Below, one piece after another: positions 4,984 to 25,227 of a stretch of DNA of 42,285 bases. Below the pieces are notes generated by a model. That model worked only from the letters and a program-made list of their open reading frames with translations, did not search any database and was not told the origin of the DNA. Positions within the stretch are counted from its first letter, which is position 1. Every line of letters starts with the position of its first letter. Source of the DNA: a virus (Duplodnaviria; Heunggongvirae; Uroviricota; Caudoviricetes); IMG/VR virus record IMGVR_UViG_2778261056_000004, positions 1 through 42,285 of that record. The stretch is one strand, 5' to 3'. The position numbers and the translations under genes are program-made.

Positions 4984-7900
4984 TCAGGAGACATCGCCGG
5001 GATAGCTGGCGTCATCGTACTTATATTTATCGGAATGGTACTGAATGGCTGAAATACTGCTGGTCCCATCACCTCCGGGAGAAATCTCGCTAACCAGCGC
5101 GTCATAGCCAATACGGGATGACGAACAGAACAGCAACCGTGGCGGTTCAATGCAGGGGTTGTCCATCTCCCATTGATCCGGGGCCAGCGCCGCGCTGTAA
5201 GGGATGCTCAGGGTGTAATCATCAATACGGGTTGGAACCTGTAGCGCCGAAGCTCTGCCGTCCTGGTACCGGATCACAACGCGTGGATTTGGAAAGGTCC
5301 AGTCTGGCGACTCACTGAGCACCAGGGTGATTGCATTACTGTTCCATGTCATGTCGGTGATGAGGCAACTCAACGTCTGGCTGCCCGGGATGTCATCGGT
5401 CAGGATGATGCGATCCATAAACTGGTAGCAGAGTGCGTCCAGCTCTGTGCTGGTCGTGTGCTGCAGACGCTGCAGACCGTAACCCAGCAGTCGGCGCATG
5501 CCGATCCGGTATGCCCGATTCTTATCCACCACTCCCTCAAGCTTGTAATCCTCCACCTTTACTGGTGTAGGGTTCCCGGACAACCGGCACTGCACCGTTT
5601 CTTCCGCCCACGTCGTTCCGTTGATATAGGTGACATCGACCCCGTCGAAATCATCCTGACTCGGTGCCTTAAACGCAGTCTGCAGTTCTTCGGTTGTCTC
5701 CTGCGGCGTGATCATCCCTGTCCAGTTCTTTACGCCTTCGCGACCGGCGGAGACCAGACCATCTGACAGCAGAAAATAACCCATGCCTGCCCCGGTGATG
5801 ATCTTCAGCACCTCCAGTGCTGATTTACTGTCGCCGGTTGCCCAGTCGAATGTCTCGCCCCGTGGTGTCCAGTAGTTCTGCTCCAGCGCATCAATCGCGG
5901 CGCGGTCAATCTGTTCTGGCCGAAAGCCGAGGGATTCCAGGACGAGGTAAAGCGCCCCGCTGATGCTGCGTGAAACGTGGCCGTTATAAAGCCGTGTGGG
6001 CGTAACGTTAATGCGGCGATCGGACTGCGCAGCCAGTCGGTTGCCGGTTCGCACGGTCAGCGCCATAGTTGTTACGCCATTATATCGCCGCGGGCGAGCA
6101 GGTAACCGGGAGCGGAGTGCCTGCCAGAATACCTGGTCTCGAGTGCTGCCACCTGCCACTGGCTCTTTTCTCCTCATTCTGACCTCATACTGACCAGCCG
6201 GAACGGAGAAAGCCCGGGTAAACCCTATCTGATTTTCTGTTTTTCTTTTCCAGCTCAGCACCTGTTCAGTCCATTCCCCCGCTGTCGCTGCATTTCGATA
6301 CTGGATAATGATCTCAACCGTCTGATTCTTTTTGTTCCCTTTATTGCTGTACTTAACCAGGCCGTTCTGAAAATTAAGGTTCACTTCAAACCGGGTTGTG
6401 GTTTCACCATCCGGGCACACCAGAAACGGGCCCACCCAGTCGAAATCATCGTTAACACCGGTAATACTTGCATCCAGCAGGGTGCGATCAGTAAATCCTG
6501 GCCATCCACTGTCAACCGTCACCACATCCACTGTTGCAGGCGGATTGCCTTGCTGCGCCTGGGTGATCAATACGCGTTCAATCGTAATGGTCTGACTGTC
6601 AATGTCAGTGATGCGGTATTTATTGTCGGCGTAGCCAATCGAGATGCGCTGCGTGCCTGCCGGGATACCTGTAAACGGTTTGCCGGTGGCGCTGTTATAT
6701 GCCAGCGTAATATGGGCACGCACCTCCGGAGTGCCGCCGGATGACTTAACACCCGGCGTGCTGACGGGTGCATCACCAAATACCGATTGCGGCAGTGTGC
6801 TGTGGGTGATCGCCCCACCTGAAAAGGGGCTGTTTGATTCGGCGATCTCAATACGCCCTGCGTTATCGCGTGCGATTAAGCCGGAACCCGTTAACTGGGA
6901 GCTGATGGTTGAAATCAGTCCGCTCATGGTAACGTAACTGGTCAGCAACGAAACGGGCCATGATGTGCCCTGCCACGTAACAGTGAACGTCACTGGCGAG
7001 GCGGTGAAATCATAGGTTGAAGGCGCGGCGCTGGCGATGACGCTTGCAGCCGACCCGCCAACGCCCGGAACTGCGGGAACCCAGGGAGTATAACTGGCAA
7101 TGAAGAGTTCATAATCTGAGTTGTTAAAACCCAGATTTACAGGCATGCCCACCACCGGCGAAAGTTCGTCCATCTCCCCATAAATGACGCTGTATCCGCC
7201 AGAATTAGACACGGTCCATGACGCAGGAGCCTCGATGGTGATGATGGTGCCCGCAACCCATGATGCCGGCACGTCTGCATCTTCATCGCTGCTGCCTGTT
7301 GATATGAGGGTAACTGTATTGCCGCTGACCAGCACCGCGTCGGCGCTGACGCTGACGGTTTGCGGGCCGCTTGAACCGAGATCCAGACCCGCGGTGCCCG
7401 AGTTCGTGTTTCCCACTTCGCCTGAGTTGTACCAGTTCTCTGTTCTGCTGTCGGAAGAAACGTCCGCGCCAGGAGGGTAGATGGTGTAACTGACATCATC
7501 ACCGAATGCAGAAATTGGCGTGTTGCCTATTCTGATATCGGATTTAGGCAAAGAAACATTTCCAACGCCAACAGCGACGAACATGCTGGTAACGAAGCTG
7601 GTCTCGCCAACGAAGCGGCTGACCGGCTGCATGACATAGTCAGGCCAGACACGGTAGCGGCCAAAGATTTCCCGTACCGGGTCGCCAAGCTTCGCCATGT
7701 TGGCTTTGGCCGGGTTGAGATCGAGCTGGTCACCGCTGCCTGGCTGGCTGGCGGCCCCCGTCTGCATCGTGCTCATCATGTAAAGGGAGTACGCCGCTGA
7801 CGCGACGGCCACGCTGACGGCAACCCACAGCGCAATTTCCGCTCCGGTACCATATGGTACCGGATACATACGCACATCACTGTCAGGCCGAATGGTGCAC

Positions 7901-8079
7901 AGTGACCAATCGGCTGGCGGAACCGGAACACCGGCAATTTCCACCGCGATTGGGTGCTGTTGTTCTGGCGTCCATCCCTCAACGTTCTGTGCAAACCAGG
8001 CGATGAGGGTCATCGTTTCGTGTTCGTGCTTTTCCAGCGGTTCGCCGGGTAACCGGGAGGGGTAGATGCGGATCGTCAC
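4984..8079 (-). CDS. tail tip / host-specificity protein (J-like) with gpI-like N-terminal domain, 1031 aa
   Basis: Large ORF located after the NlpC/P60 gene. The N-terminal ~110 aa end in a hydrophobic helix (AEIALWVAVSVAVASAAYSLYMM), as in lambda tail assembly protein I. Size and position match a central tail fiber protein. Confidence 0.65.
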   Translation of the reverse strand: MTIRIYPSRLPGEPLEKHEHETMTLIAWFAQNVEGWTPEQQHPIAVEIAGVPVPPADWSLCTIRPDSDVRMYPVPYGTGAEIALWVAVSVAVASAAYSLYMMSTMQTGAASQPGSGDQLDLNPAKANMAKLGDPVREIFGRYRVWPDYVMQPVSRFVGETSFVTSMFVAVGVGNVSLPKSDIRIGNTPISAFGDDVSYTIYPPGADVSSDSRTENWYNSGEVGNTNSGTAGLDLGSSGPQTVSVSADAVLVSGNTVTLISTGSSDEDADVPASWVAGTIITIEAPASWTVSNSGGYSVIYGEMDELSPVVGMPVNLGFNNSDYELFIASYTPWVPAVPGVGGSAASVIASAAPSTYDFTASPVTFTVTWQGTSWPVSLLTSYVTMSGLISTISSQLTGSGLIARDNAGRIEIAESNSPFSGGAITHSTLPQSVFGDAPVSTPGVKSSGGTPEVRAHITLAYNSATGKPFTGIPAGTQRISIGYADNKYRITDIDSQTITIERVLITQAQQGNPPATVDVVTVDSGWPGFTDRTLLDASITGVNDDFDWVGPFLVCPDGETTTRFEVNLNFQNGLVKYSNKGNKKNQTVEIIIQYRNAATAGEWTEQVLSWKRKTENQIGFTRAFSVPAGQYEVRMRRKEPVAGGSTRDQVFWQALRSRLPARPRRYNGVTTMALTVRTGNRLAAQSDRRINVTPTRLYNGHVSRSISGALYLVLESLGFRPEQIDRAAIDALEQNYWTPRGETFDWATGDSKSALEVLKIITGAGMGYFLLSDGLVSAGREGVKNWTGMITPQETTEELQTAFKAPSQDDFDGVDVTYINGTTWAEETVQCRLSGNPTPVKVEDYKLEGVVDKNRAYRIGMRRLLGYGLQRLQHTTSTELDALCYQFMDRIILTDDIPGSQTLSCLITDMTWNSNAITLVLSESPDWTFPNPRVVIRYQDGRASALQVPTRIDDYTLSIPYSAALAPDQWEMDNPCIEPPRLLFCSSSRIGYDALVSEISPGGDGTSSISAIQYHSDKYKYDDASYPGDVS

Positions 8080-8456
8080 TGGTAATACTCCACGCGGACA
8101 AAGCGGCGCGCAAATCGCGCCAGCGGCAGGAAGGTCACATTAGTGCGCGGATTGCACTCAGCTGCATGCAGCGCGCCGTCAATCTCCACAACGATCGCGA
8201 CATGCGTCACCACAGATCCTGAATAGCAGGCAATGCCCGCGCCCGGCACAGGCTCGCAACGCTGCAGGGCGGTCATCAGCCCGCGCGCCTCCCGGTCAAG
8301 GCCGTTATCGTCCCTGGTGACCCCGGCGAATTCAGGCCACGGAGCCAGGGCCAGATCGCGCCGGATTTCGTTAACGATGCCAAAGCAGTCGAGGGCGGGG
8401 AAAACGCGGCCGCCCTTCCGCCACTCGACAGAACGGTATTTATCGGGATTGAACAT
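8076..8456 (-). CDS. NlpC/P60-family tail protein (lambda K C-terminal analogue)
   Basis: Carries a DCFG cysteine motif and a downstream His (VVTHVAIV). Lies between the DUF1833-like protein and the tip protein, with a 4-nt overlap to the downstream gene. Confidence 0.65.
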   Translation of the reverse strand: MFNPDKYRSVEWRKGGRVFPALDCFGIVNEIRRDLALAPWPEFAGVTRDDNGLDREARGLMTALQRCEPVPGAGIACYSGSVVTHVAIVVEIDGALHAAECNPRTNVTFLPLARFARRFVRVEYYQ

Positions 8457-8465
8457 GATGATTTC

Positions 8466-8954
8466 CTACTGCAGGTAACGTAATCCGGGGAACAGTGGCA
8501 ACGTATAGCGAAATCTCGGCCACGAGGTATCGAGGATATTCATATAGCCAGCAGTGATCTGCACTTCTGTGGCCGTCCAGTAACCTTCCTTTATCGTCAG
8601 GGTGAATGGCGGGGCTGCAGGTGCAGACAGGTCAGAAGAAACATACCGGCGGAACGTCAGGGAAGCACTGGAAAGGTTATCAAGAGCGTTGCGGATTGCA
8701 GTCGAAACCACGCCGTCGATATTGCTGATGGCAAATTTAAGATCCTGCGTACCATCTGAGTTGCGCGCCGGCAGCGACACGTCGATTGCAGAGCCGGTAA
8801 AAGTAGCCTGCGCACCGCTCTCAAGGGTAACGGTGATATCTTCCCAGCCGCGGGTTAGCCAGTAACTCTGGCCACCAACGGTAATCTGAAGCGTGTCCAG
8901 GATTACCTCATCGCCGCCGGATGCGTACAGCCGGTTGAGAACTGCACTGGTCAT
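8466..8954 (-). CDS. minor tail protein, DUF1833-like
   Basis: Pattern and size (162 aa) fit, and the gene sits after the tape measure. The ATG at 8954 forms an ATGA overlap with the upstream stop. The track start at 8966 is a GTG. Confidence 0.55.
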   Translation of the reverse strand: MTSAVLNRLYASGGDEVILDTLQITVGGQSYWLTRGWEDITVTLESGAQATFTGSAIDVSLPARNSDGTQDLKFAISNIDGVVSTAIRNALDNLSSASLTFRRYVSSDLSAPAAPPFTLTIKEGYWTATEVQITAGYMNILDTSWPRFRYTLPLFPGLRYLQ

Positions 8955-9412
8955 GCTTCGGGCCACTCCTTATTCAGCGCCAAATCGATAATGTCCGAAC
9001 CCGCCACCAGCTCTGGGAACAATCCCCATCCCGGCGGTAACAGTGGCCGCTCCCACAACTCCAGCGTTGCGGTAAACTGCCAAAATTTACCGCTAGCCAA
9101 AATTGGACCCTGATAAATATCCACAAAACGGCACTTATAAGGCTGTATCCCCAAAGGGGTTTTAAGGCGCATATAAAACCAGGCAACACCATCTGTCAGT
9201 GCGTCCCGAAACCACGCCTCAAAAAGCTGAGCTTCATTATCTTTTTTAAACGACCATTTCACGCTCGCTTGAGTTGGGACGGAAGAATAAATTCGGCGTT
9301 GTCTGGAACGGCCTGAGGTTAATTTGGTACGAAGAAAAGGACTCACTGGCTCACAACCAAATCCATCTTTTAACGGAATTGGTAATTCCTTAGGGTAGAA
9401 AATATCAGCCAT
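8951..9412 (-). CDS. minor/distal tail protein, 153 aa
   Basis: The ORF starts on the tape measure stop (TAATG overlap). Assignment rests on position only. Confidence 0.5.
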   Translation of the reverse strand: MADIFYPKELPIPLKDGFGCEPVSPFLRTKLTSGRSRQRRIYSSVPTQASVKWSFKKDNEAQLFEAWFRDALTDGVAWFYMRLKTPLGIQPYKCRFVDIYQGPILASGKFWQFTATLELWERPLLPPGWGLFPELVAGSDIIDLALNKEWPEA

Positions 9413-12105
9413 TATCGTGCCTTCCTTTTTGCGTACATGACATTAACCGCGTCATGAACTTTCCCCTGCCCTTTCGACAAGCTATTTACGACCATATTAA
9501 ATCCCTGGGTCGCCCCGCGTTTCACAGCCGCTTCCATCATCGCAATTGTCCGTGCATCAGGATCCCCATTAACCTGGATAGTTGGCGAATAGCTAAACTG
9601 GCCCTGAATGGCGTTATTTTCGCGTTGTTTCTGAATATCGGTGAGAGTCGCATCCAGTTTTGCTGAGGTATTAGACTTCACGACTCGCTCACCTTGCTGA
9701 AGCAACCAAGTCCCCGTCGCGGGAACCTTATCGAGACCATCGTGAGCCATACCCATTAGAGAGGCCGCTGATATTGCCGCAACCATTGGTGATGTTACTG
9801 CCGCAGCAGCAGCCATGGCGCCAGGAGCCAGCGCGGGTCCAACAATAGGGATCGCCGCAGTAGAAGCGTAGGCGTTTAATTGGGCCATTAATGCACTGGC
9901 CGTGGCATTGCTGGTCATGGCTGCCGCAGCGGATGCCTGCGTGCCTTTTCCTACCATCAGTTGAACGGCTTGATAAACCAACCATTGGGCTGCCATTTGC
10001 GTTAGGGTCTGAATTACCGCCTCACCCATGCCAACAAACATGTTGCTGAAGGCATCCCCAACGGATTGGGCCTGGGTAATAATGCCCGTGAAAGCATCAG
10101 CCATGGAATTTGTGGTTTGGTTCAGCAGGGTCGATGCTGAATTCGCTGCCGTTTGATTATAGTTTGAAGCCTCATCGGCGAAATTCGCCATGGATGTTAA
10201 TGCACCAGCTTGCCAGTTCTGCCTGATTGCGTCCTGCTGGCCATAATAATTTCTGAGTGCCGTTAGTTCATTCTGGTAGCCTTTATCGCTTTCATTGCCG
10301 CCCGCGTTTTTCCATCCCTGTAGGAGTTGAGCCTCCTCAAGACGGCGTTGCGCCTGGCGGCTGCTCATGCCAGCACTATCGGCAAGCGCGCTGGTTTTCT
10401 CACCCATCTGAGTCACATATTTCTGCGATGTGTCCTGCAGGCGATTGAGACGTTCCTGTATGACGATCTGATCACCCAATCTGGCATTAATTTCTGCCTG
10501 CGCGAGGACTTTATCTTTGCTGGCGAGTACAGATTTTTCATCATCAGTTAGGGTTCGCGTTTTCGCAGCTTGCTCGAGAACCGTAAATCTGGCCTGATCT
10601 TTCCACAATTGCTTGCGCTGCTGACTGATCTTGTCGTTGATTCCGGAGTGCTGCCGCAATACCTCCAGCTGAGCTTGCAACTCCAGAGACTGGGCACTGG
10701 TACTGTCGGTAAGTTTTGCGCCGACCGGCGTCGTGATTTTCGCTGGCTTCTTAAGCGAGTCCTCATATTCCTTTTTCGCTGCGGCCAAATTGATGTTGTA
10801 ATCAGCCTGGAGGATCCGGCCCTCTTTCAACGCTTTGTTCAGTTCGCTCTGACGAGCGGTGTACTTCTCCAGAGCCGTCTGCGTTTTACCGTAATTCGCC
10901 TGGGCCTGTTGCGCGTATTTGAGGCGATCGGCTTCTAATCCTGCTTCACGGGAAGCGTTTTCCTGGGCGAGTTGAGAATTTCTGGCCTGTTGCTGCGCCA
11001 TATCCAGCGCCTGGCGAGCGGTCTCACGGTCGTTCCAGAAACGTGCGCGCGCGTCATCGTTGACATAACGATCACCCTTTCGCAAATTCCAGATGTCATC
11101 CGCCCGCTTGAAAGCCGCCTCGGCCTTACTCAGCATTTCCTGAGAAGTATCAGGCCTGCCAATATCCAGTGCCGCATCCCACATGGATTTGAACGCATTT
11201 TTAAGGGAGTCTGCGGCCGATTCAATCGTCCCCATGTTGTCGCGGATGCTGGCAGTCTGCTTATTGAACCCGGCGGTTGCTGCTTCGTTTGCCGCCTGCA
11301 GTGCCCCTGCTTCATTTCCTGAGCGCTGCAGAGCGGCAACATATTCAACCTGCTCAGCCGTGACATTGTGAAACTGCTGCGCCATCGCCAGCAGCCCTGA
11401 CGCCGGGTCGTTGACCATGCGTCCAAATGCTTCAGCCACCTTATCGACCGGCAGACCGGATGCATCCGTAAATTTCGCGACCGAGATCGCAAGCTCTTCG
11501 AAGTTAGCACCCGCGCGAACGCCGGCATTAACAAGCGCAGTCAGTGCCTGGCTGGTCTGGTTGAAGGTAAGGCCCGCTTTCTCTCCGGCAGCTGCTATGG
11601 TCTGCATGCGAACAGCTGTGAGGCCAGCAGTATTGCCGGTCAATGTCAGCGTTTTATTAAATTCAGAGAGTGTGCTCGAGCCCTGATAATACGAATACAT
11701 CAGCGCCGCGGTGCCAGCAGATAACACGCCTACTCCGAGCATTACAGGGGAGATCGTTCCCAACAAAGCGCTGAACATAGGCCGCAGACCACCAAACTGG
11801 TCTTTAATTTGCCCGCCCTGCTGGAGCATGATCAGCCAGGGACTCTGCCCGCCGGCCAGCTGCGTCGCGATATCAGTGAACTGCGCCGGCAGGGTACGCA
11901 TCGCGGAAGAATACTGACCGACAGAAATCCCGGCTCGCTTTGCAGCCAGTTCCTGCTTCGAAAATGCTTGCTGAACCTGCAAGGCTGCATCATTTGCCGC
12001 TTTGCCTGTTCCCTTCAGCTGCTTATTTACATAGGTAACCTGCTCAGTAAATTTAGCCGAATCAACATCAAGGTTAACGATCAGATCACCCACTGACTGG
12101 GCCAT
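9412..12105 (-). CDS. tail tape measure protein, 897 aa
   Basis: Long, Ala/Gln-rich, coiled-coil-like sequence with hydrophobic glycine-rich stretches. Lies directly after the G/T chaperone pair. Confidence 0.85.
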   Translation of the reverse strand: MAQSVGDLIVNLDVDSAKFTEQVTYVNKQLKGTGKAANDAALQVQQAFSKQELAAKRAGISVGQYSSAMRTLPAQFTDIATQLAGGQSPWLIMLQQGGQIKDQFGGLRPMFSALLGTISPVMLGVGVLSAGTAALMYSYYQGSSTLSEFNKTLTLTGNTAGLTAVRMQTIAAAGEKAGLTFNQTSQALTALVNAGVRAGANFEELAISVAKFTDASGLPVDKVAEAFGRMVNDPASGLLAMAQQFHNVTAEQVEYVAALQRSGNEAGALQAANEAATAGFNKQTASIRDNMGTIESAADSLKNAFKSMWDAALDIGRPDTSQEMLSKAEAAFKRADDIWNLRKGDRYVNDDARARFWNDRETARQALDMAQQQARNSQLAQENASREAGLEADRLKYAQQAQANYGKTQTALEKYTARQSELNKALKEGRILQADYNINLAAAKKEYEDSLKKPAKITTPVGAKLTDSTSAQSLELQAQLEVLRQHSGINDKISQQRKQLWKDQARFTVLEQAAKTRTLTDDEKSVLASKDKVLAQAEINARLGDQIVIQERLNRLQDTSQKYVTQMGEKTSALADSAGMSSRQAQRRLEEAQLLQGWKNAGGNESDKGYQNELTALRNYYGQQDAIRQNWQAGALTSMANFADEASNYNQTAANSASTLLNQTTNSMADAFTGIITQAQSVGDAFSNMFVGMGEAVIQTLTQMAAQWLVYQAVQLMVGKGTQASAAAAMTSNATASALMAQLNAYASTAAIPIVGPALAPGAMAAAAAVTSPMVAAISAASLMGMAHDGLDKVPATGTWLLQQGERVVKSNTSAKLDATLTDIQKQRENNAIQGQFSYSPTIQVNGDPDARTIAMMEAAVKRGATQGFNMVVNSLSKGQGKVHDAVNVMYAKRKAR

Positions 12106-15254: not shown

Positions 15255-17267
15255 TTACTTACCGGATGATTTCGCCAGACCGCGATAATCCAGCGGCGCC
15301 ACACCAGCATCGATGCGGACTTTCGTCGCAACACCATCAGTGGTGAAACCTTCCTGCTGGTCGATGTACGGGGCATCAATGCCATTGAGGTACGCCACTT
15401 CGATGGTATCGGTGCCCTGTGCGGCAGCCAGATACCAGGCCGCCGGATCGGCGTCATCCAGACGCGCTTCTGCGATCACTTCGGCAAAGTTCTGCAGCGG
15501 GTTAACCACGCCGGCATTGATATCAGCCCCTTTCACGCTTGCTGACTTAATGGTCTGGCTGGCTAATGTTTCCAGACCCACCGGAACCAGCATGTAGGCC
15601 GGACGAATGTTCAGGGCGCGCTCGCCCTCTTTCTGCTTGCGCATGTTCTGGCGGGCCTTATCCAGGCTGTCAACGCTGATGGCGCCAGCTGAAAGGTTGG
15701 CATGGTCAGCATGGAAGAGCGCCTTACCATCCGACAGTTTCCCGTTACCGGTCAGCACGGCATAGACCAGGTCACCGATTGTCGCTTTTGCAGCGCGCCC
15801 CATCTTCATCGGAACGTCTGTCAGCTGGTTCAGGTCATCGTTGATAATGGCCTGGCGGGTGATGGAGAAGATCTCACCGTAAGTAGCCAGCGCGATGGTT
15901 TCACCCTTATCCTGCGTGGTGATGTACTTATACTCCGCGCCCTCTCGCACCTGACGCAGGGAAGGGAAGCCGCCCATGCCGACGCGATGCGCCGTTTTGA
16001 AGTCAGACAGCTGGCCTTTTTTGGTCCAGAGTTCAAAGGTCTCTGCCGCTTCATCCCAGCCCTGCAACAGCGCTTTATTGGCGACATCGAGCAGGATATT
16101 GCCAAAATCGGAGGTGCTGTGCGTCAGCGCAAAACCAACCATCTGCATCGGGTTGTAACTGGAGACCCCGATGCCGCGCTCGGTCAGGGACATGCGGGCG
16201 TATTCGCGCAGCGTCATACCGTTATAGACGTTGTCGCGCTCAACATTTTCATAACCGGAACGCGCCATCAGCGCCTGGCGGATCCCGTCGCCAACAAAGT
16301 TACCGTTGCCGGCATACACATGGGCCTGACCCTGCGTAGTGGTGTTGGACGGCGTGGCATTTTTACCGAGCTCTGCCAGAAGAACATCTTTCGCCTGGCT
16401 GACCGAGCACTCTGGATCGGCAATACATTTAGCCTGCAGCTCCTGATGCTTTCCGCCGAACATGGCGAAGAGGTCCTGAATACCGTTCACGCGTGCCTTT
16501 TGCTCCGCAATAACCTGCGCACGGATATCTGTTTCGCTGGCACCTGCCGCCGGAGCTGGCTGGGTGGCAGTTGGCTGCTGTGTTTCGCGCGTAGCGGTAT
16601 TGCGCGGCGGGGTGACCATGTTGCGAATGCTGTTTGGCATCTTTTCAAATTCCTCAATACGTTTCGAATGGATGCAGGCCATTGCCTGCAAGGATGGTGT
16701 GACCTGGTCAGCGAAGCCCAGCTCCAGACATTCAGTGCCGGAGAGCCAGGTCTCTTCCTCCAGCATTGCCGCAATTTCTTCGGTGCTTTTTCCCGTCTTC
16801 TGCGCGTATGCCGGGATCAACACCGACTCCACTTTGTCGAGCAGGTCGGCGTAGTCGCGCATGTCATCAGCATCACCACCCGCAAAACCCCACGGCTTGT
16901 GGATCATCATCATGGTGTTTTCCGGCATGATGACCGGATTTCCTACCATGGCGATGACTGATGCCATTGAGGCAGCCAGACCGTCGATAAAAACGGTGAT
17001 CGCGGCGCCGTGGAATTTCAGGGCATTAAAAATGGCGATACCGTCAAAGACATCGCCACCAGGGGAGTTGATATGCAGTTTGATGTGAGTTACGTCGCCC
17101 AGCGCCTTAAGGTTTGCGACGAACTGCTTCGCCGTTACCCCCCAGTAGCCGATCTCGTCGTAGATGTAGATTTCGGCTTCGTTTTCCGAACTGGCCTGCA
17201 TACGGAACCAGCTATTTTTTGCCTGGGCTTTCGGGCGGTTCTTTACCCGGTTTTGCTTCCTGGACAC
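15255..17267 (-). CDS. prohead protease (ClpP/S14-like) fused to major capsid protein
   Basis: The N-terminal part has AEIYIYDEIG, INSPGGDV, GLAASMAS (Ser) and MMIHKPWG (His). A Pro/Thr/Gln linker follows, then about 400 aa of capsid-like sequence. A GTG at 17267 follows AAGGAG with a 6-nt spacer. ATG 17285 is an alternative start. Confidence 0.8.
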   Translation of the reverse strand: MSRKQNRVKNRPKAQAKNSWFRMQASSENEAEIYIYDEIGYWGVTAKQFVANLKALGDVTHIKLHINSPGGDVFDGIAIFNALKFHGAAITVFIDGLAASMASVIAMVGNPVIMPENTMMMIHKPWGFAGGDADDMRDYADLLDKVESVLIPAYAQKTGKSTEEIAAMLEEETWLSGTECLELGFADQVTPSLQAMACIHSKRIEEFEKMPNSIRNMVTPPRNTATRETQQPTATQPAPAAGASETDIRAQVIAEQKARVNGIQDLFAMFGGKHQELQAKCIADPECSVSQAKDVLLAELGKNATPSNTTTQGQAHVYAGNGNFVGDGIRQALMARSGYENVERDNVYNGMTLREYARMSLTERGIGVSSYNPMQMVGFALTHSTSDFGNILLDVANKALLQGWDEAAETFELWTKKGQLSDFKTAHRVGMGGFPSLRQVREGAEYKYITTQDKGETIALATYGEIFSITRQAIINDDLNQLTDVPMKMGRAAKATIGDLVYAVLTGNGKLSDGKALFHADHANLSAGAISVDSLDKARQNMRKQKEGERALNIRPAYMLVPVGLETLASQTIKSASVKGADINAGVVNPLQNFAEVIAEARLDDADPAAWYLAAAQGTDTIEVAYLNGIDAPYIDQQEGFTTDGVATKVRIDAGVAPLDYRGLAKSSGK

Positions 17268-18714
17268 GAGTGTCTCCTTTGTCATTTGCCGGGTCGGTAT
17301 CAAACACCAGCCCCTGTTTACGGTTCTCGTCAACCTCCGCCTTACGGCGGCGCTTAACATCATCAGGATTTGCGCCGCGGGCGCGCACCCATTCACTCTC
17401 TGTCGCAGCACCGCCACGCAGCAGAATTTTCCAGGCGTTCGCCTCTTTGACCGGGTCAATCCATGGCATAACGGGCCCGGAGAACACGGCGCTAAAGAGC
17501 GTGGCTTTATCGACATTTTTCGGGACCGTGATCTCGCCTGAAGCAATCGCCATCCTGAGCCACGCCCGGTACATAGGTCGGGTGATCGCCGCGATGAATG
17601 CGTCCTGAAGAATGAAATAGCCTTCGGTTGACTCCACCAGCTCCTGGCGCTGCGCGCTGTATGTTCCGTCGTAGTTACGGGCGATACTTGAAAAGCTACC
17701 GCGCGAACCAGCGGCCACAGCACGTAGCTGGCCATTACGGAAAGTTTCGAGGTTAGGGTTGGGTCGGTCTGACTTGATCATGCCGATGTCTTCACCCGGG
17801 CGGAGATCGTCAAACAGCATGCCTGGCTCGATGTTTAGCTCCCTTTGACCGCTGCTGCCTTCGTCATAAGTCTGGCCATCACCTTTTTTAATGAACATGC
17901 CCAGTGCCGCAGCAATGCGGGCAGCGGTCAGCTCAGCGTCCTCGTACTCCTTCAGCGCCGAAAGACGCATCAGCACCCCGGCAAGCAGTGAGTTACCCCG
18001 GATTTGATGCAGGCGGCGCATAAACTTCAGGTGAAGCATGTTCTCCGCCTGAATATCCTTGGTATCTCCCTGGCGCATACCTTCTGCCGGCAGGTTTTTG
18101 TAGACCATGTATCGGGTCGGGCGGCCCCAGTCATTCAGGTAAATGCCCTGGCACAACTTCTGACCCGGCTCTGTCCGCTCCATCGGCACAAAATCCGGTT
18201 CCAGCGCCTCAATCCAGAAAGGAATGTCTGCCACAGGCGACAGACCGTTCCCGGTGCCACTGACCAGCTGCGCGAACACCTCGCCGTCACGTAACCAGGT
18301 CCGGCACATCAGGCGCTCAAGCACTGGTCGGGTGAACTGCCCGGTAACATCGGGAGAAACGGACCACTCCGCCCATTTGGCGCGGATCTGTGTAGCAAGG
18401 TCAGTAGCGATGCCCCCGTTACTCATCAGGGGCTGCGGCTCCACGATGATGCCTTTTGCCCCCACAATGCGCTCTTCGAGTTTATCAAGGATGCCGATCA
18501 CCAGATCGTGGTTACAGTCGAGCCACCGGGCTTGTTCGCGCAGCGATCGCCCGCCGAATTGCGTCAGCTGATTCGCGGAGCGGTTTTCGCGTTTTGCCCG
18601 GTGCGTCCGGGTAGGAATGACAGCCTCATATGCCTGGATCATCAGGCGCGACTTCAGGCGCTCCGCTTTCCAGCCCGGGGAAAACATGCCTATCAGATTA
18701 TCCAGGGCGCTCAT
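17212..18714 (-). CDS. portal protein (lambda B family), 500 aa
   Basis: Size and position between W and the protease fit. ATGA overlap with W. I judge the sequence similar to the lambda-type portal family. Confidence 0.8.
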   Translation of the reverse strand: MSALDNLIGMFSPGWKAERLKSRLMIQAYEAVIPTRTHRAKRENRSANQLTQFGGRSLREQARWLDCNHDLVIGILDKLEERIVGAKGIIVEPQPLMSNGGIATDLATQIRAKWAEWSVSPDVTGQFTRPVLERLMCRTWLRDGEVFAQLVSGTGNGLSPVADIPFWIEALEPDFVPMERTEPGQKLCQGIYLNDWGRPTRYMVYKNLPAEGMRQGDTKDIQAENMLHLKFMRRLHQIRGNSLLAGVLMRLSALKEYEDAELTAARIAAALGMFIKKGDGQTYDEGSSGQRELNIEPGMLFDDLRPGEDIGMIKSDRPNPNLETFRNGQLRAVAAGSRGSFSSIARNYDGTYSAQRQELVESTEGYFILQDAFIAAITRPMYRAWLRMAIASGEITVPKNVDKATLFSAVFSGPVMPWIDPVKEANAWKILLRGGAATESEWVRARGANPDDVKRRRKAEVDENRKQGLVFDTDPANDKGDTRVQEAKPGKEPPESPGKK

Positions 18715-21014: not shown

Positions 21015-21502
21015 CAGTCCTCCTCTGGCTCATCCTCCTCCGGTTCTGCGTCCAGCACGCGCTGCGCAATCTGGTCGCGAAGATCGTCAATCACACTCTG
21101 TACGCGGCTGACAGCTGCGGGGTTCAGCGCGCAGTCACGCTCCAGAATGTCCGGTAACGTTTCCAGCACCTGCACCACAGCTTTCGCCATGACAGAAAAT
21201 TCACGGGCCACCTCATCAGCCGGGATTAACTGGCCGGTGTCCTGCTCGAATTTGAGCCGCTCGTTTTCCGCTTTCCAGTGGGCGAGCCTGTCCGAAGGCG
21301 TCATATCGTCGGCGCTGGACGCGACGACGGGTGCCATCAGCTCGGTAAGCACATCGGTGATGAGATAGAGTTTGAGTTTGTTGTTGCTGCCCGGTGCAGG
21401 CTCGACTTGCTTAAGCCTGGCGGCAACGGTCTGGCGATGAACGCCGGTGATCCCTGCCAGCTGATTGATGTTCAGCTTCAGGGTGGAGAGCTCCTGGTCC
21501 AT
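21014..21502 (-). CDS. terminase small subunit (Nu1-like, N-terminal HTH)
   Basis: LNINQLAGITGVHRQTVAARLK forms an HTH and the C-terminus is acidic. The stop overlaps the terL start (TGATG) with a GAGGAGGA RBS. The start codon is uncertain (ATG 21502 or GTG 21514). Confidence 0.7.
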   Translation of the reverse strand: MDQELSTLKLNINQLAGITGVHRQTVAARLKQVEPAPGSNNKLKLYLITDVLTELMAPVVASSADDMTPSDRLAHWKAENERLKFEQDTGQLIPADEVAREFSVMAKAVVQVLETLPDILERDCALNPAAVSRVQSVIDDLRDQIAQRVLDAEPEEDEPEED

Positions 21503-21514
21503 GATGGTGAACAC

Positions 21515-21744
21515 TTTTTGAACGATTCGACATCATTGCAAAATGGCATTGATAAAAATCATACAGTTATGCACATGATGATGATGACCCTGGATCACGA
21601 AAACTAGCCGTTTTCCGCGTGCCCGCCGCCTCGTGGTAGGCCGCCCCTCCGGGAGGACCCGCTCAATCGAGAATGATTGTCATTTGCATGATATTCAGGA
21701 GGGGTTGGCCGCCTTGAGAGCCTGCATGAGGCCAGTGGTACGGG
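21515..21744. other. candidate cos / terminase recognition region
   Basis: Non-coding stretch directly upstream of the small terminase gene. It contains a GC-rich block (GCCCGCCGCCTCGTGGTAGGCCGCCCCTCCGGGAGGACCCGC) flanked by AT-rich sequence. Position is the only real argument. Confidence 0.3.
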
Positions 21745-22086
21745 TCAGAAGCCGAGGCGGACACGTCCCTCTGGTTCGTTGGCATTGGTCGTGATCCATG
21801 CAGTACCAGCCACAGCGTTATCATCCGTACCATCCTTAGCGTTGGCGCTCAGCTTGCCGTCTTTCGTCAGCCAGAGGCGAGCACCGCGCTGCCAGGTTTC
21901 GGCTGCAACCTTCGGCAGCACAAACACCCCGGTCATCATCAGCACACCATCACTGCCGGCGGGGATATCATGCTGAGCGATACCAGAAATCGCACCAACG
22001 ATCACCGGCTGGCCAGATGACACATCTTTTGTGGTCCCGTTGTGCCAGTCCATGGTATTGCCGTCCTGGTAGTAGTTTTTAGCCAT
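21745..22086 (-). CDS. second DUF2190-family protein, 113 aa, outside the head module
   Basis: Its pattern resembles the ORF at 14851-15174 (N.Y.DG.T.D, G.PV.VG...GIA..DI..G..G....GVF.LPK). AGAGG RBS precedes the start. Confidence 0.5.
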   Translation of the reverse strand: MAKNYYQDGNTMDWHNGTTKDVSSGQPVIVGAISGIAQHDIPAGSDGVLMMTGVFVLPKVAAETWQRGARLWLTKDGKLSANAKDGTDDNAVAGTAWITTNANEPEGRVRLGF

Positions 22087-22240
22087 ATTTAGCCTCTGGT
22101 TATGCCTGCAAGGCAGATCAAATGAATGAGTCTTACGTTAGGTGCGCTGGGTGCGCAGAGGGGATAATTGACATGAGCATGTGCCTTCACATGATGATGT
22201 TAATTAAAGGCCCCGCTGTAGCGAGGCCTGGTGATACATT

Positions 22241-22540
22241 CTACGGCTTTGTGGTGCTCACGATATACGAGTCCACCACGCCATCCTTGTTTACTTTGAC
22301 CACCAGCGATTTACCCTGCCCTACGCTGAATGCAGTTGCGTGAGCGTAGGTCCAGCCATAGATTTTATTCCCTTCGGAATCGGCGGTTATTGAGGTTGGC
22401 TTACCAAACTTCTGCAGAACAGTTTGCTCTGTCGTGACCCCTTTTTGGATTGAGGCGACATCTGCCTCCGAAAAATCTTTACCAACTGTCGCGCAACCTA
22501 CAAGGCCTAAAGCAATGATGCCTAGAATTGTCTTTCTCAT
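22241..22540 (-). CDS. small lipoprotein, SmpA/OmlA (BamE)-like, 99 aa
   Basis: Signal peptide with lipobox (IALGLVGC). The mature part (QKGVTTEQTVLQKFGKPTS...) resembles the BamE fold family. A hairpin lies downstream. Confidence 0.6.
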   Translation of the reverse strand: MRKTILGIIALGLVGCATVGKDFSEADVASIQKGVTTEQTVLQKFGKPTSITADSEGNKIYGWTYAHATAFSVGQGKSLVVKVNKDGVVDSYIVSTTKP

Positions 22541-22769
22541 TGATATATCCCTTATTTCAAAAAGGACAATCCTACCACCGAGCTATCTGAAGCGCGAAAA
22601 TTACATGGCCTGCGATAAAACCTTTGTGATCAGTGCAGAGCGTAAAGTGTCTGTGGTTGCCGCACAGCAGCCGCGAACACGAGAAGTCTTTGGTGTGCGT
22701 GGCGGCATATCTACCCCAAAAACACAGGCGAATACACGTGTGCCAAGTTTTCATTAGCAACATAAATGT

Positions 22770-23258
22770 TTAATTAGGTTTAAATTTATACGCACCAGAA
22801 ATGAATGGCTTAGAAATAAATGGGATGAGCAATTCGGCTATCTTTTCTCGATGCACTTGCCCTTGCATGTATTCGCCATGCCTGTTGTAAAGCGCATGAA
22901 ATTGCTGCCCTATTTCGTTCGTGTCAAACGTAACCTCCATTAATGTTACATAGAGATAAATTTGATTCATCGCGTCTTGAAGTAGCAAGGCGGGCTGACG
23001 GCAGTTTGGGTCTGATGGTTCAAGAGTTTCTGGCATCATAATAAGCAAATTACGATAATTAATCAGGGCAGCCTTTAACGCTTTTTTTTCGTTGTGCTTC
23101 TCTTGCTGCTTCCACGTATGCAGGGCTCGAAAAGCTACGCAGGCAGCTACCAACGTAATAATCCCTGAAAACCATGTTCCCAACACGGACCATAGCGCCC
23201 AATCAGCAGCCTCTCTACTGGCGACAAGCGCCTCATACGCAATATAATTGGCGTCCAT
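22770..23258 (-). CDS. hypothetical single-pass membrane protein, 162 aa
   Basis: ATG at 23258 follows GAGGTGG. One N-terminal TM helix (WALWSVLGTWFSGIITLVAACVAF) precedes a helical soluble part. Coding sequence is AT-rich. I recognise no motif. Confidence 0.5.
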   Translation of the reverse strand: MDANYIAYEALVASREAADWALWSVLGTWFSGIITLVAACVAFRALHTWKQQEKHNEKKALKAALINYRNLLIMMPETLEPSDPNCRQPALLLQDAMNQIYLYVTLMEVTFDTNEIGQQFHALYNRHGEYMQGQVHREKIAELLIPFISKPFISGAYKFKPN

Positions 23259-23283
23259 TACCACCTCGCAATATTCATTGCGG

Positions 23284-23307
23284 TGATTGTAGCCAAAAAT
23301 ACAATCA
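23284..23307 (-). promoter_or_regulatory. perfect 8-bp inverted repeat (TGATTGTA-N8-TACAATCA) overlapping a TACAAT -10 element
   Basis: Read directly from the sequence. It lies 26-49 nt upstream of the 162-aa ORF start. Confidence 0.45.
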
Positions 23308-23354
23308 CAGGCACTCGATGAATACCTGCTCTACTGCCGCACCATGATGGCAAT

Positions 23355-23377
23355 AAAAAACCGCCCGGAGGCGGTTT
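23355..23377 (-). terminator. intrinsic terminator hairpin in the divergent intergenic region
   Basis: The minus strand reads CCGCC-UCCG-GGCGG followed by U6. On the plus strand the U-run is only 3 nt. Confidence 0.55.
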
Positions 23378-23465
23378 GAGATACATGAAAATATTTCATG
23401 TTGAATTAAGAATTTTCGCACCAATATCAGATTTGCCCAATCCTAGATAACCTCTGGAAAATCCT

Positions 23466-24017
23466 ATGATTCATACTGTTCATTTTTTATGCCCAGTTTC
23501 TCCAAGTACAGTGAGCTTGCTTCAAAACAATATTTTGTCAGCAATATCTCAAGGGGCAACCCGAATCAACCTGCACATTTCGAGTTCTGGCGGCGACGTA
23601 ACATCCGGCTTTACCGCTTATAATTTTATTAAAACCCTACCCATTCCCGTTCATTGCTTCAACATCAGCAATATCGATTCAATTGCTAATGCAATTTTTC
23701 TCGCCGGAACTAAGCGGTTTGCAAATCACGGAGCAAGATTTTTGTTGCATCCTTTCCAGTGGAACTTCGGGGGAATGCAAAGCGTCGATCACGAACGAAT
23801 GCGCGAATGGGTATCTAGCTTAGATCACGATCTTGACCGTCTCGTTTCTATCTTTAACGAGGAAACTGTTTCCGCTGGAGAACTCACTGACTGGCGTGAG
23901 TTGATCAGAACCTCTTCCATTTTGAACCCTGAAAGAGCTGCCACTCTCGGCCTTATTGAAGGTATTCAGGAGGCTAGCATCGTTGAACCCAATGCTACCT
24001 GGTGGATAAATTGTTGA
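23466..24017 (+). CDS. stand-alone ClpP/S14-like serine protease homologue, 183 aa
   Basis: Aligns by eye to the prohead protease part of 15255-17267: INLHISSSGGDV vs IKLHINSPGGDV, NIDSIANAIFLAG vs GLAASMASVIAMVG (Ser) and FLLHPFQW vs MMIHKPWG (His). It is on the opposite strand to the late operon and is AT-rich. Confidence 0.65.
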   Translation: MIHTVHFLCPVSPSTVSLLQNNILSAISQGATRINLHISSSGGDVTSGFTAYNFIKTLPIPVHCFNISNIDSIANAIFLAGTKRFANHGARFLLHPFQWNFGGMQSVDHERMREWVSSLDHDLDRLVSIFNEETVSAGELTDWRELIRTSSILNPERAATLGLIEGIQEASIVEPNATWWINC

Positions 24018-24150
24018 CATGAAGTAACCTCTTTGCCCGATTATTTTTAAGATTATAGTCGGGCTTAATCATTCCGATTGTCAAATCAATGTTTAATTAA
24101 GAATCTATTTCTTGCAATTGATATCCCACGCCTTGTGATGTGCCAAGATG

Positions 24151-24390
24151 TCATTTCACAGCGTTGTACCAGGCTTGCCAACGATATTTATCGAGGCGCA
24201 GCTGCTGAAGGCATTGCGCAGTTTCGATATCAGCCTGCAGATCATCATCGCTATTGGTGCCAGCGTTACTTCCCCTGCACGGCTCCTGCATCAAATCCGC
24301 TGATGGAGTTGGCAGCGTCGATTGCACGCTGGCGCAGCTGCACAGCAGCATCGTCAAACTGGCACACAGTACGATCCGGAGACTGAACAT
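24151..24390 (-). CDS. o-spanin (Rz1-like lipoprotein), overlapping the i-spanin gene
   Basis: Signal sequence with lipobox (LLCSC) and a Pro-containing short mature part. The gene starts inside the 3' end of 24266-24616 in another frame. Confidence 0.6.
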   Translation of the reverse strand: MFSLRIVLCASLTMLLCSCASVQSTLPTPSADLMQEPCRGSNAGTNSDDDLQADIETAQCLQQLRLDKYRWQAWYNAVK

Positions 24391-24616
24391 ATTTCACCAC
24401 GTCGCGGGTAATGGTTCGGTAAATCACTTTGCCCTCGATGGTCGCTGCAGCGGCTTTTACTTCAACCGGCTGGATGACCTTCTCGGCGTTCTCTTTCTTC
24501 TTTGCTGCCAGCGCGTTGATATGGTCAGCGTGCGCGCTCCAGCCAGAACGCCAGGCGATTGCACCAGTGACAGAGATGGCGACCACCAGCGCCAGCAGAA
24601 CGTAACGCAGCCTCAT
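24266..24616 (-). CDS. i-spanin (Rz-like)
   Basis: N-terminal TM helix (YVLLALVVAISVTGAIAW) followed by a coiled-coil-like periplasmic part. ATGA overlap with the endolysin stop. Confidence 0.65.
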   Translation of the reverse strand: MRLRYVLLALVVAISVTGAIAWRSGWSAHADHINALAAKKKENAEKVIQPVEVKAAAATIEGKVIYRTITRDVVKYVQSPDRTVCQFDDAAVQLRQRAIDAANSISGFDAGAVQGK

Positions 24617-25227
24617 GACAGCGCCGCCTGCGCCCGGCTGTAACGCACCTTACGGTCAGCCAGCCCATTCTGCCCACCGTTGATGATCTGGGTGACACGC
24701 ACTATATCGCCGGAATACAGCAGGCAACCGCGTAATGCGAAGAACCAGGCAGCCGACCGGGCAGCGTGTAGCTCCTGCTCCAGCAACTCGGGCGTGCTCA
24801 CCAGATCCAGCTTCAGCGCTGCACCGCATTTGGTGTAGTTCTCACGCCCGGTGATCTGCAGCAGGCCACGGCCACGATATTTCCAGCCGTCGCCCTCGGC
24901 GATGTTGCCCATGCGGCTGCCGTATACCAGGTTGGCGATCTGCGGCTGGTGGGCGGTCTGCTTATTGTCGACACGGCCCAGCATCTCGCACTGGTACGGC
25001 GTCAGGCGCTTACCGAAAGTTTTCTTCAGGCCGTCTACCGAATAGTTGAAGTTCTCCACCAGCGAGGTAAAGCCTGCCGACTCGTGGCCCACCTGCGCGA
25101 TGAACATGGCCTGATCGTTAACTGCGGTGATGCCGAACTCTTTCATTGCTGCGTCGATATGCGGATACCAGCGCGCAGCTAATTCGGCGCTTACCACAGC
25201 CGCCTTCTGAAATTGTGCCTGATTCAT
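24613..25227 (-). CDS. endolysin, glycoside hydrolase family 19 (chitinase-like), 204 aa
   Basis: ATG at 25227; the track ORF is over-extended. Motifs FIAQVGHESAGF, YRGRGLLQITGRENY and INGGQNGLADR are present. Confidence 0.8.
   Translation of the reverse strand: MNQAQFQKAAVVSAELAARWYPHIDAAMKEFGITAVNDQAMFIAQVGHESAGFTSLVENFNYSVDGLKKTFGKRLTPYQCEMLGRVDNKQTAHQPQIANLVYGSRMGNIAEGDGWKYRGRGLLQITGRENYTKCGAALKLDLVSTPELLEQELHAARSAAWFFALRGCLLYSGDIVRVTQIINGGQNGLADRKVRYSRAQAALS

Follow-up and report, generated by a model that had tools for sequence, protein, structure and literature searches.

PpClpP1 of Pseudomonas plecoglossicida, whose structure (9UXT) was the first of its family and appeared in 2026, is an N-terminally truncated ClpP paralogue that forms a homotetradecamer with a 42.7 Å axial pore (PMC12900304). 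Its 'triad' reads Ser73-His96-Pro151. The Ser and the His are essential, the third residue is dispensable, and the peptidase activity is 13-fold below that of the canonical paralogue (PMC12900304). Alone, PpClpP1 neither binds ClpX nor degrades casein or GFP-ssrA; together with canonical ClpP it forms a stable heterotetradecamer, which binds ClpX and is slightly more active (PMC12900304). The deletion mutant shows growth and motility defects, and the paper does not mention phage (PMC12900304). Here we describe a gene of this type that is carried by a lambdoid E. coli prophage, the IMG/VR virus record IMGVR_UViG_2778261056_000004. All 42,285 nucleotides (nt) of the record were analysed and are called the window. 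The gene is a coding sequence of 183 amino acids (aa) at 23466-24017 (+), which an earlier note on this DNA had taken for a paralogue of the phage prohead protease. We find that its product is, by sequence and by predicted structure, a PpClpP1-type ClpP isoform, encoded in a discrete cassette between the lysis and the terminase genes.

Accessory ClpP paralogues are also found in Pseudomonas aeruginosa (ClpP2) and in Listeria, Mycobacterium and Chlamydia (ClpP1/P2). They are weak or inactive alone, their N-termini are generally fuller, and their triads are mostly Ser-His-Asp or Ser-His-Asn. To our knowledge, none of them has been reported to be phage-borne. They resemble the type discussed here in being a second isoform that joins the housekeeping ring. 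By profile search, PpClpP1 stands far closer to our family (E 2.5e-50 for 9UXT) than they do (E ~1e-9 to 1e-12). A second group, the S14 phage head-maturation proteases, has the same fold and the same Ser/His positions and likewise no ClpP axial loops. Their genes belong to the late operon, either placed between those for portal and capsid or fused to capsid or scaffold genes, and the proteins have a targeting extension. Morons, such as lambda bor and lom and those of HK97, are independent units of deviant G+C content (GC) between conserved modules, oriented opposite to or independently of lytic transcription (PMC3594210). The sieA-orf59a-mnt region of P22 offers a further likeness, for in P22-like phages a ClpP-like gene adjoins mnt; PMC10883804 names sieA, orf59a and mnt and lists prophage-expressed exclusion systems. 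None of the moron functions that we found described involves a ClpP isoform.

We checked the family membership of the 183-aa protein by profile and structure searches. The open reading frame (ORF), which starts with ATG in the ORF list of the window, matches Pfam CLP_protease (PF00574) with E 1.1e-12 (48.6 bits against a gathering cutoff of 20.2). PF01343 (SppA, S49) and PF01972 (SDH proteinase) gave no match at E ≤ 1, and PF00574 alone was reported. Thus, the choice between ClpP, SppA and SDH that the earlier note had left to hidden Markov model and structure searches falls on a ClpP fold of the PpClpP1 type. Every NCBIfam ClpP and head-protease model stays far under its cutoff for this protein, both the canonical ClpP models (TIGR00493, 18 bits versus 308.6; PRK00277, 31.6 versus 249) and the head-maturation models (NF045542, Clp_rel_HeadMat, 49 bits versus 120; NF045540, 48.3 versus 475). 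The best PHROG match is PHROG 94, 'head maturation protease' (7e-20).

The AlphaFold2 model of the protein has a mean local confidence (pLDDT) of 91.7 and a predicted template-modelling score (pTM) of 0.87. A beta-strand opens at residue 2, and the entire 183 aa are taken up by the protease fold, with no extension for scaffold, capsid or procapsid targeting. Performing Foldseek searches with this model, we find 9uxt_A as the best match, and the two folds are near-identical (template-modelling (TM) score 0.92, root-mean-square deviation 1.4 Å, 38% identity). The canonical ClpPs reach TM scores of 0.7-0.8 at ~20% identity. A single-sequence phmmer comparison with 9UXT gives E 4.3e-36 across residues 3-179; the identity to PpClpP1 is 38-40%. 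When the family profile was run against the PDB sequences, 9UXT ('Clp protease', 183 aa) came out at E 2.5e-50 and the canonical ClpPs at 2e-12 or worse. Among the predicted viral structures of BFVD, none exceeds 23% identity to the protein. Both the phage protein and PpClpP1 have 183 aa, and both begin at the first beta-strand, showing the same N-terminal truncation. When the protein was aligned with the E. coli ClpP sequence, the first ~39 residues of the precursor (propeptide, axial loop and helix A) had no counterpart.

In an alignment of 17 family members, Ser72 and His95 are invariant, as is the GG pair (42-43) inside a largely conserved SSSGG loop. The pair corresponds to S73/H96 of PpClpP1, and neither protein has an Asp at the third triad position. 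That position is Ser150 in the window protein and Ser or Ala throughout the phage clade, in place of Pro151 of PpClpP1. The phage clade also conserves a C-terminal WW[IV][TN]C motif of its own, which PpClpP1 does not have. BLASTP aligns the protein with the prohead protease/capsid fusion ORF of the window (15258-17735, -) at 28% identity over 108 aa (E 7e-9), placing the Ser of NIDSIAN on AASMAS and the His of LLHPF on MMIHK. The earlier note was therefore right that the Ser and His positions of the prohead protease are kept. All the family features that could be checked are present, and sequence and model place the protein among the ClpP-fold serine protease subunits, as one of the PpClpP1 type.

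The gene is under strong purifying selection. Pairwise Nei-Gojobori estimates of the ratio of nonsynonymous to synonymous substitution rates (dN/dS) range from 0.02 to 0.065, taken from the 15 of 18 distinct diverged copies with an estimable dS. Among the copies at ≥70% identity, 37 of 38 pass a check as intact 183-codon ORFs, and the more diverged relatives have ORFs of ~178-183 aa. A library search returned 220 cluster representatives at E ≤ 1e-30, mostly stand-alone proteins of 180-200 aa.

We mapped the mobile unit by blastn, comparing the window from 22000 to 25000 with loci that carry 85-97% identical proteins. In 14 IMG/VR contigs with different neighbours, nucleotide identity of 82-91% starts sharply at 23345-23350 and ends at 24155. 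A more diverged tier of copies (78-80%) is homologous from 23380/23385 to 24025/24034. Because only 23345/23350-24155 is shared with contigs whose flanks differ, we take the unit to be a cassette of ~810 bp (23345..24155), common to prophages with unrelated flanks. GC is 0.43-0.46 over ~22300-24100 versus 0.56-0.61 on each side, which bears out the claim of an AT-rich, horizontally acquired insert. The gene also stands, as the earlier note had it, without a capsid or scaffold partner and on the strand opposite the late operon, converging on the lysis genes Rz/Rz1 (24151-24616, -). On its other side it diverges from a gene of 162/164 aa (22770-23264, -), from which a 200-bp intergenic region separates it. 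It lies between Rz/Rz1 and other morons, outside the head module, where the window's own protease/capsid fusion follows the portal gene, and no head-gene fragments flank it. The cassette has the marks of a moron, being a discrete insert with GC 0.43 versus ~0.58, a conserved -35 and upstream element, and hairpins.

The gene recurs alone at several distinct accessory sites in temperate phages. Only draft assemblies and metagenomes contain the exact protein, the E. coli drafts always having it in the same prophage context, and near-identical cassette DNA was absent from the phage collection and from the complete E. coli genomes. Enterobacter, Rahnella, Kosakonia and Atlantibacter have members at ≥90% identity, and the more distant relatives, at 48-75% identity, occupy other accessory positions. 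The lysis/terminase junction of the window is also used in Rahnella (locus L023), and the gap between Q and the holin gene in Klebsiella michiganensis (L011-L014) and in L022. In P22-like immI regions the gene follows mnt directly, with a one-base stop/start overlap, as in Pectobacterium (L015), in Escherichia phage phiv205-1 and in ~45 of 80 IMG/VR loci. It lies beside cI, antisense in the early-left region, in Proteus (L017, L024). At other sites it adjoins the tail-fibre, tail-fibre-assembly and invertase genes of a Mu-like element (L127) or sits between large ORFs without a Pfam match in Pantoea (L025). The ClpP-like gene is solo at every site, either on the strand opposite to the surrounding lytic genes or co-oriented with mnt.

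At ≥80% coverage, 78 of 5426 complete E. coli genomes contain the pair of mnt and the ClpP-like gene; 6 sequenced coliphages also carry the pair. Together with E. coli, the phage-borne branch covers Enterobacter, Klebsiella, Rahnella, Proteus, Pectobacterium and Pantoea. In the record of phiv205-1 (L132, MN340231) the gene after mnt (5001-5537) is annotated 'head maturation protease', likely a mis-annotation; in other phage records it is a 'hypothetical protein' (several) or unannotated (one). The orthologues of Pseudomonas and Azotobacter, which are 65-89% identical to PpClpP1, are chromosomal and lie beside KGG stress-protein and DUF6555 genes. In the Pseudomonas chromosomes L018-L021, small KGG-repeat stress-protein genes and a DUF6555 gene flank the orthologue, and such neighbours hint that the chromosomal branch is regulated by stress or in stationary phase. 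Thus, PpClpP1 is encoded by a chromosomal gene, whereas the window gene and its Enterobacterales clade form a mobile prophage moron. No neighbour recurs among the yet more distant relatives, which come from diverse phyla.

We read the 183-aa ORF as a moron that is made in the lysogen and supplies host Clp proteolysis with an accessory ClpP isoform, and on balance we lean towards this reading. By analogy with PpClpP1, the subunits would assemble into heptameric rings or tetradecamers whose pore is wide and open. Alone, the protein would be a weak peptidase docking neither ClpX nor ClpA; following the same precedent, it would most likely pair with the canonical ClpP ring of the host. Lysogens would then hold mixed ClpP complexes, and their proteolytic output would be altered. 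The gene is probably expressed while the phage is dormant, because it is oriented against the lytic operons and, in P22-like relatives, has the 1-nt overlap with mnt. From its position we infer expression from the prophage in lysogeny, and therefore a lysogenic-conversion function.

Several points weigh against this reading. The mechanism is wholly transferred from a 38%-identical relative of another genus, where the gene is part of the chromosome and not phage-borne. The WW[IV][TN]C motif, absent from that relative, could point to another partner or another way of acting. The -10 hexamer of the candidate promoter (see below) is weak and variable, and the consensus scanner makes no call there. 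Finally, we found no selective benefit for the gene. The possible payoff can be split roughly. A gain in host stress or virulence fitness is a tentative possibility, based on the growth and motility defects of the PpClpP1 deletion and on the Pseudomonas orthologues beside KGG stress-protein genes. Defence or superinfection exclusion is held about as tentatively or a little more so, and control of the prophage's own regulators is doubtful. A more specific proposal is that the gate-less isoform would co-opt host ClpP/ClpX in the lysogen as a single-gene device of superinfection immunity or induction control, redirecting Clp proteolysis onto an incoming or resident phage protein; we consider it unlikely.

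The cassette also carries several candidate signals. At its upstream edge, the scanner calls a strong hairpin resembling an intrinsic terminator (23358..23377, -), AAACCGCCTCCGGGCGGTTT followed by TTTATTGCCA. It is kept in the cassette copies L052-L064, and L068 and L069 carry a different G+C hairpin at this place. It may serve as an insulator, since it would halt unmodified leftward transcripts antisense to the ClpP-like gene. A 19-bp palindrome, ACATGAAA-ATA-TTTCATGT, lies exactly at 23383..23401, where the earlier note had placed it; it was read from the sequence and abuts the -35 hexamer. It is a candidate operator or A/T-rich UP-like element. Its inner ATGAAA-N3-TTTCAT is present in 9 of 11 diverged upstream regions, with TTTCATGTTGAA nearly invariant. 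Perfect palindromes with 8-bp arms number ~10 in the window versus 4.9 ± 2.1 in shuffles, and by this comparison we rejected the palindrome as a statistically exceptional feature; conservation alone argues for a function.

The candidate promoter (23401..23430, +) consists of TTGAAT (23401-23406), an 18-nt spacer and TATCAG (23425-23430). The note's proposal of an own promoter therefore stands in part: both hexamers are in place and the -35 is conserved across the copies, but the consensus scanner makes no call, because the -10 has no final T. Since the inner palindrome and the -35 are conserved in the diverged copies, they are probably functional parts of the cassette. Downstream of the gene, a hairpin that was read from the sequence, GCCCGA-N18-TCGGGC followed by TTAATCATT (24035..24064, +), possibly terminates the moron transcript. 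Its loop is longer than 8 nt, and the scanner therefore passes over it. In the Rahnella copy (L023) the corresponding sequence is ACCCGA...TCGGGT, in which both arms of the stem are changed. No known RNA family was found in 21500-24700 at E ≤ 1. Separately, a 93%-identical copy of the Rz1 3' end (window 24151-24270) is present upstream of the cassette in one IMG/VR contig, L060 (6707-6826), which suggests a duplication or a recombination scar at the insertion junction.

A 66-aa ORF runs antisense to the end of the ClpP-like gene (23820-24020, -). Its ATG abuts the stop codon of the ClpP-like gene (TGACAT), and a Shine-Dalgarno-like AGAGG lies 7 nt upstream. Both this sequence and the ATG are kept in 7 of 10 diverged contexts. 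We do not treat the ORF as a gene because its protein is poorly conserved (~55% identical between the window and L023, versus ~82% for the ClpP-like protein, as estimated by eye), its ends vary between copies and the drop of dS in the overlap is inconsistent.

Clustering the neighbours at ~105 loci of the prophage clade and inspecting 25 distant loci, we found no conserved partner gene; mnt alone recurs, and in P22-like phages alone. The divergently oriented 162/164-aa gene encodes a protein with a single transmembrane segment (phrog_6169, no Pfam family). By the blastn boundaries it lies outside the shared cassette, and its presence beside the ClpP-like gene is confined to the 11 loci of the window's lineage. 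Its homologues at 72-75% identity are found at this lysis/terminase junction in other prophages, where they have the orientation of the late operon and lie beside an Abi_alpha (PF14337) gene, with no free-standing ClpP-like gene alongside. Other homologues have a context that does not look like phage. The 162-aa gene is thus an independent moron, and the lysis/terminase junction looks like a general hotspot of morons and defence genes.

Other accessory genes were noticed at these sites. In the low-GC island of the window, a gene for a predicted lipoprotein of 99 aa (22241-22540, -; phrog_3135) has weak similarity to BamE and to the superinfection-exclusion protein Cor and is probably another moron. 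A 113-aa gene of the decoration-protein family Phage_cement_2 (21745-22086, -) lies upstream of the small terminase gene and not in the head module. In L022, the stretch between Q and the lysis genes contains, next to the ClpP-like gene, one for a 463-aa nSTAND1/AAA-type nucleoside triphosphatase (6722-8113, -), plausibly a defence gene in the same hotspot. In a prophage of Proteus mirabilis ATCC 29906 (L024), a pair of DUF4411 (PIN-like) and Peptidase_M78 (ImmA/IrrE) genes (8421-10051, -) lies between the ClpP-like and repressor genes. Genes with pRha/ANT domains are present in the window prophage and in L022.

One competing explanation is defence: in a single-gene superinfection-exclusion or anti-phage effector, the gate-less protease, alone or via host ClpP/ClpX, would destroy a protein of the incoming phage. 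The gene does sit in classic prophage defence and moron hotspots, with candidate defence neighbours in L022 (nSTAND1/AAA) and L024 (DUF4411 and Peptidase_M78) and with an Abi_alpha gene at the window's junction in related prophages. P22-like phages, moreover, have it immediately following mnt, in the part of the genome that is taken up in P22 by the adjacent genes sieA, orf59a and mnt, in this order. However, PADLOC-DB v2 returned no family at E ≤ 1, either for the ClpP-like protein or for its two neighbours; the earlier note likewise had not recognised the gene as part of a named defence system. Our literature search found neither a paper on a phage-borne ClpP clade nor one tying a ClpP-like gene to defence. 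A further lead, the defence system of phage-inducible chromosomal islands made of HP and SDH_sah (PF01972; DefenseFinder 'FS_HP_SDH_sah'), is alike in using a ClpP-clan serine protease as an accessory gene on a mobile element; our protein differs in having neither a PF01972 match at E ≤ 1 nor a conserved partner gene. PpClpP1 alone degraded neither casein nor GFP-ssrA (PMC12900304), and the Pseudomonas orthologues are ordinary chromosomal genes near stress proteins and not in defence islands. We therefore give the effector only a small chance. A housekeeping role, in which the protease would trim or remove a phage regulator (such as leaky antirepressor Ant or repressor fragments) and thereby stabilise lysogeny or tune induction, is rather improbable. 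Mnt maintains lysogeny in P22 as the repressor of ant, and the translational coupling to mnt in ~45 P22-like loci fits such a role, as do the pRha/ANT-domain genes of the window prophage and L022. But ANT-domain genes are common in lambdoid phages, so this association is weak, and the ClpP-like gene also occupies sites unrelated to immunity, namely the tail-fibre/invertase end of the Mu-like element and the lysis/terminase junction.

The decoy of the earlier note, a prohead-protease paralogue that would mis-process the capsid or scaffold of superinfecting HK97-fold phages, could draw on the PHROG match (7e-20) and on the Ser/His positions common to the window's own prohead protease. It finds no support in the comparison with PpClpP1, a cellular-type protein that is nearer than any phage protease (38% identity and TM 0.92, versus 28% for the fusion ORF). 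The Clp_rel_HeadMat score of 49 bits falls short of the 120-bit cutoff, no scaffold- or capsid-targeting extension is present, and the chromosomal Pseudomonas orthologues have no phage context. Unlike the S14 head proteases, the gene is solo, on the opposite strand and at accessory sites, and we consider a decoy very unlikely. A two-gene system with the adjacent 162-aa membrane protein, also raised in the note, is suggested by the divergent pair and its common 200-bp intergenic region, and is still harder to credit. The 162-aa gene is outside the cassette, the pairing is limited to the 11 loci of its own lineage, and ClpP-like copies of 96-97% identity have other neighbours. Conversely, the 72-75% identical homologues stand beside Abi_alpha with no free-standing ClpP-like gene. 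As co-occurrence fails in both directions, which the note itself had named as a refutation, we do not pair the two genes. The note's other alternative, a decayed remnant of a second head-morphogenesis module, has nothing beyond the family-level likeness to head proteases in its favour. The dN/dS of 0.02-0.065 excludes decay, and with 37 of 38 copies intact and no flanking head-gene fragments we give a remnant practically no weight.

An accessory ClpP isoform made in the lysogen is thus the reading that we retain. The PpClpP1-type protein family is already known; a phage moron with a ClpP isoform as its cargo we found described neither in literature searches nor in PADLOC. ClpXP and ClpAP control many regulators of phage and host, among them lambda O, LexA and cI fragments, antitoxins and RpoS. 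Should the gene give no phenotype, it would be one further moron of unassigned benefit. The cargo class is widespread and strongly constrained, touches a central host protease and is found in a genetically tractable system. If the gene proves to act in superinfection immunity or induction control, it would be the first case in which defence or lysogeny is served by re-subuniting a host AAA+ protease. Should it be routine for temperate phages to bring a ClpP isoform of their own into the lysogen, this would be a new route of lysogenic conversion, which alters the composition of a central host protease in contrast to adding a toxin, a receptor modifier or a nuclease. The PpClpP1-type family, described so far only as a Pseudomonas drug target, would then gain a mobile phage-borne branch that is present in ~1.4% of complete E. 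coli genomes.

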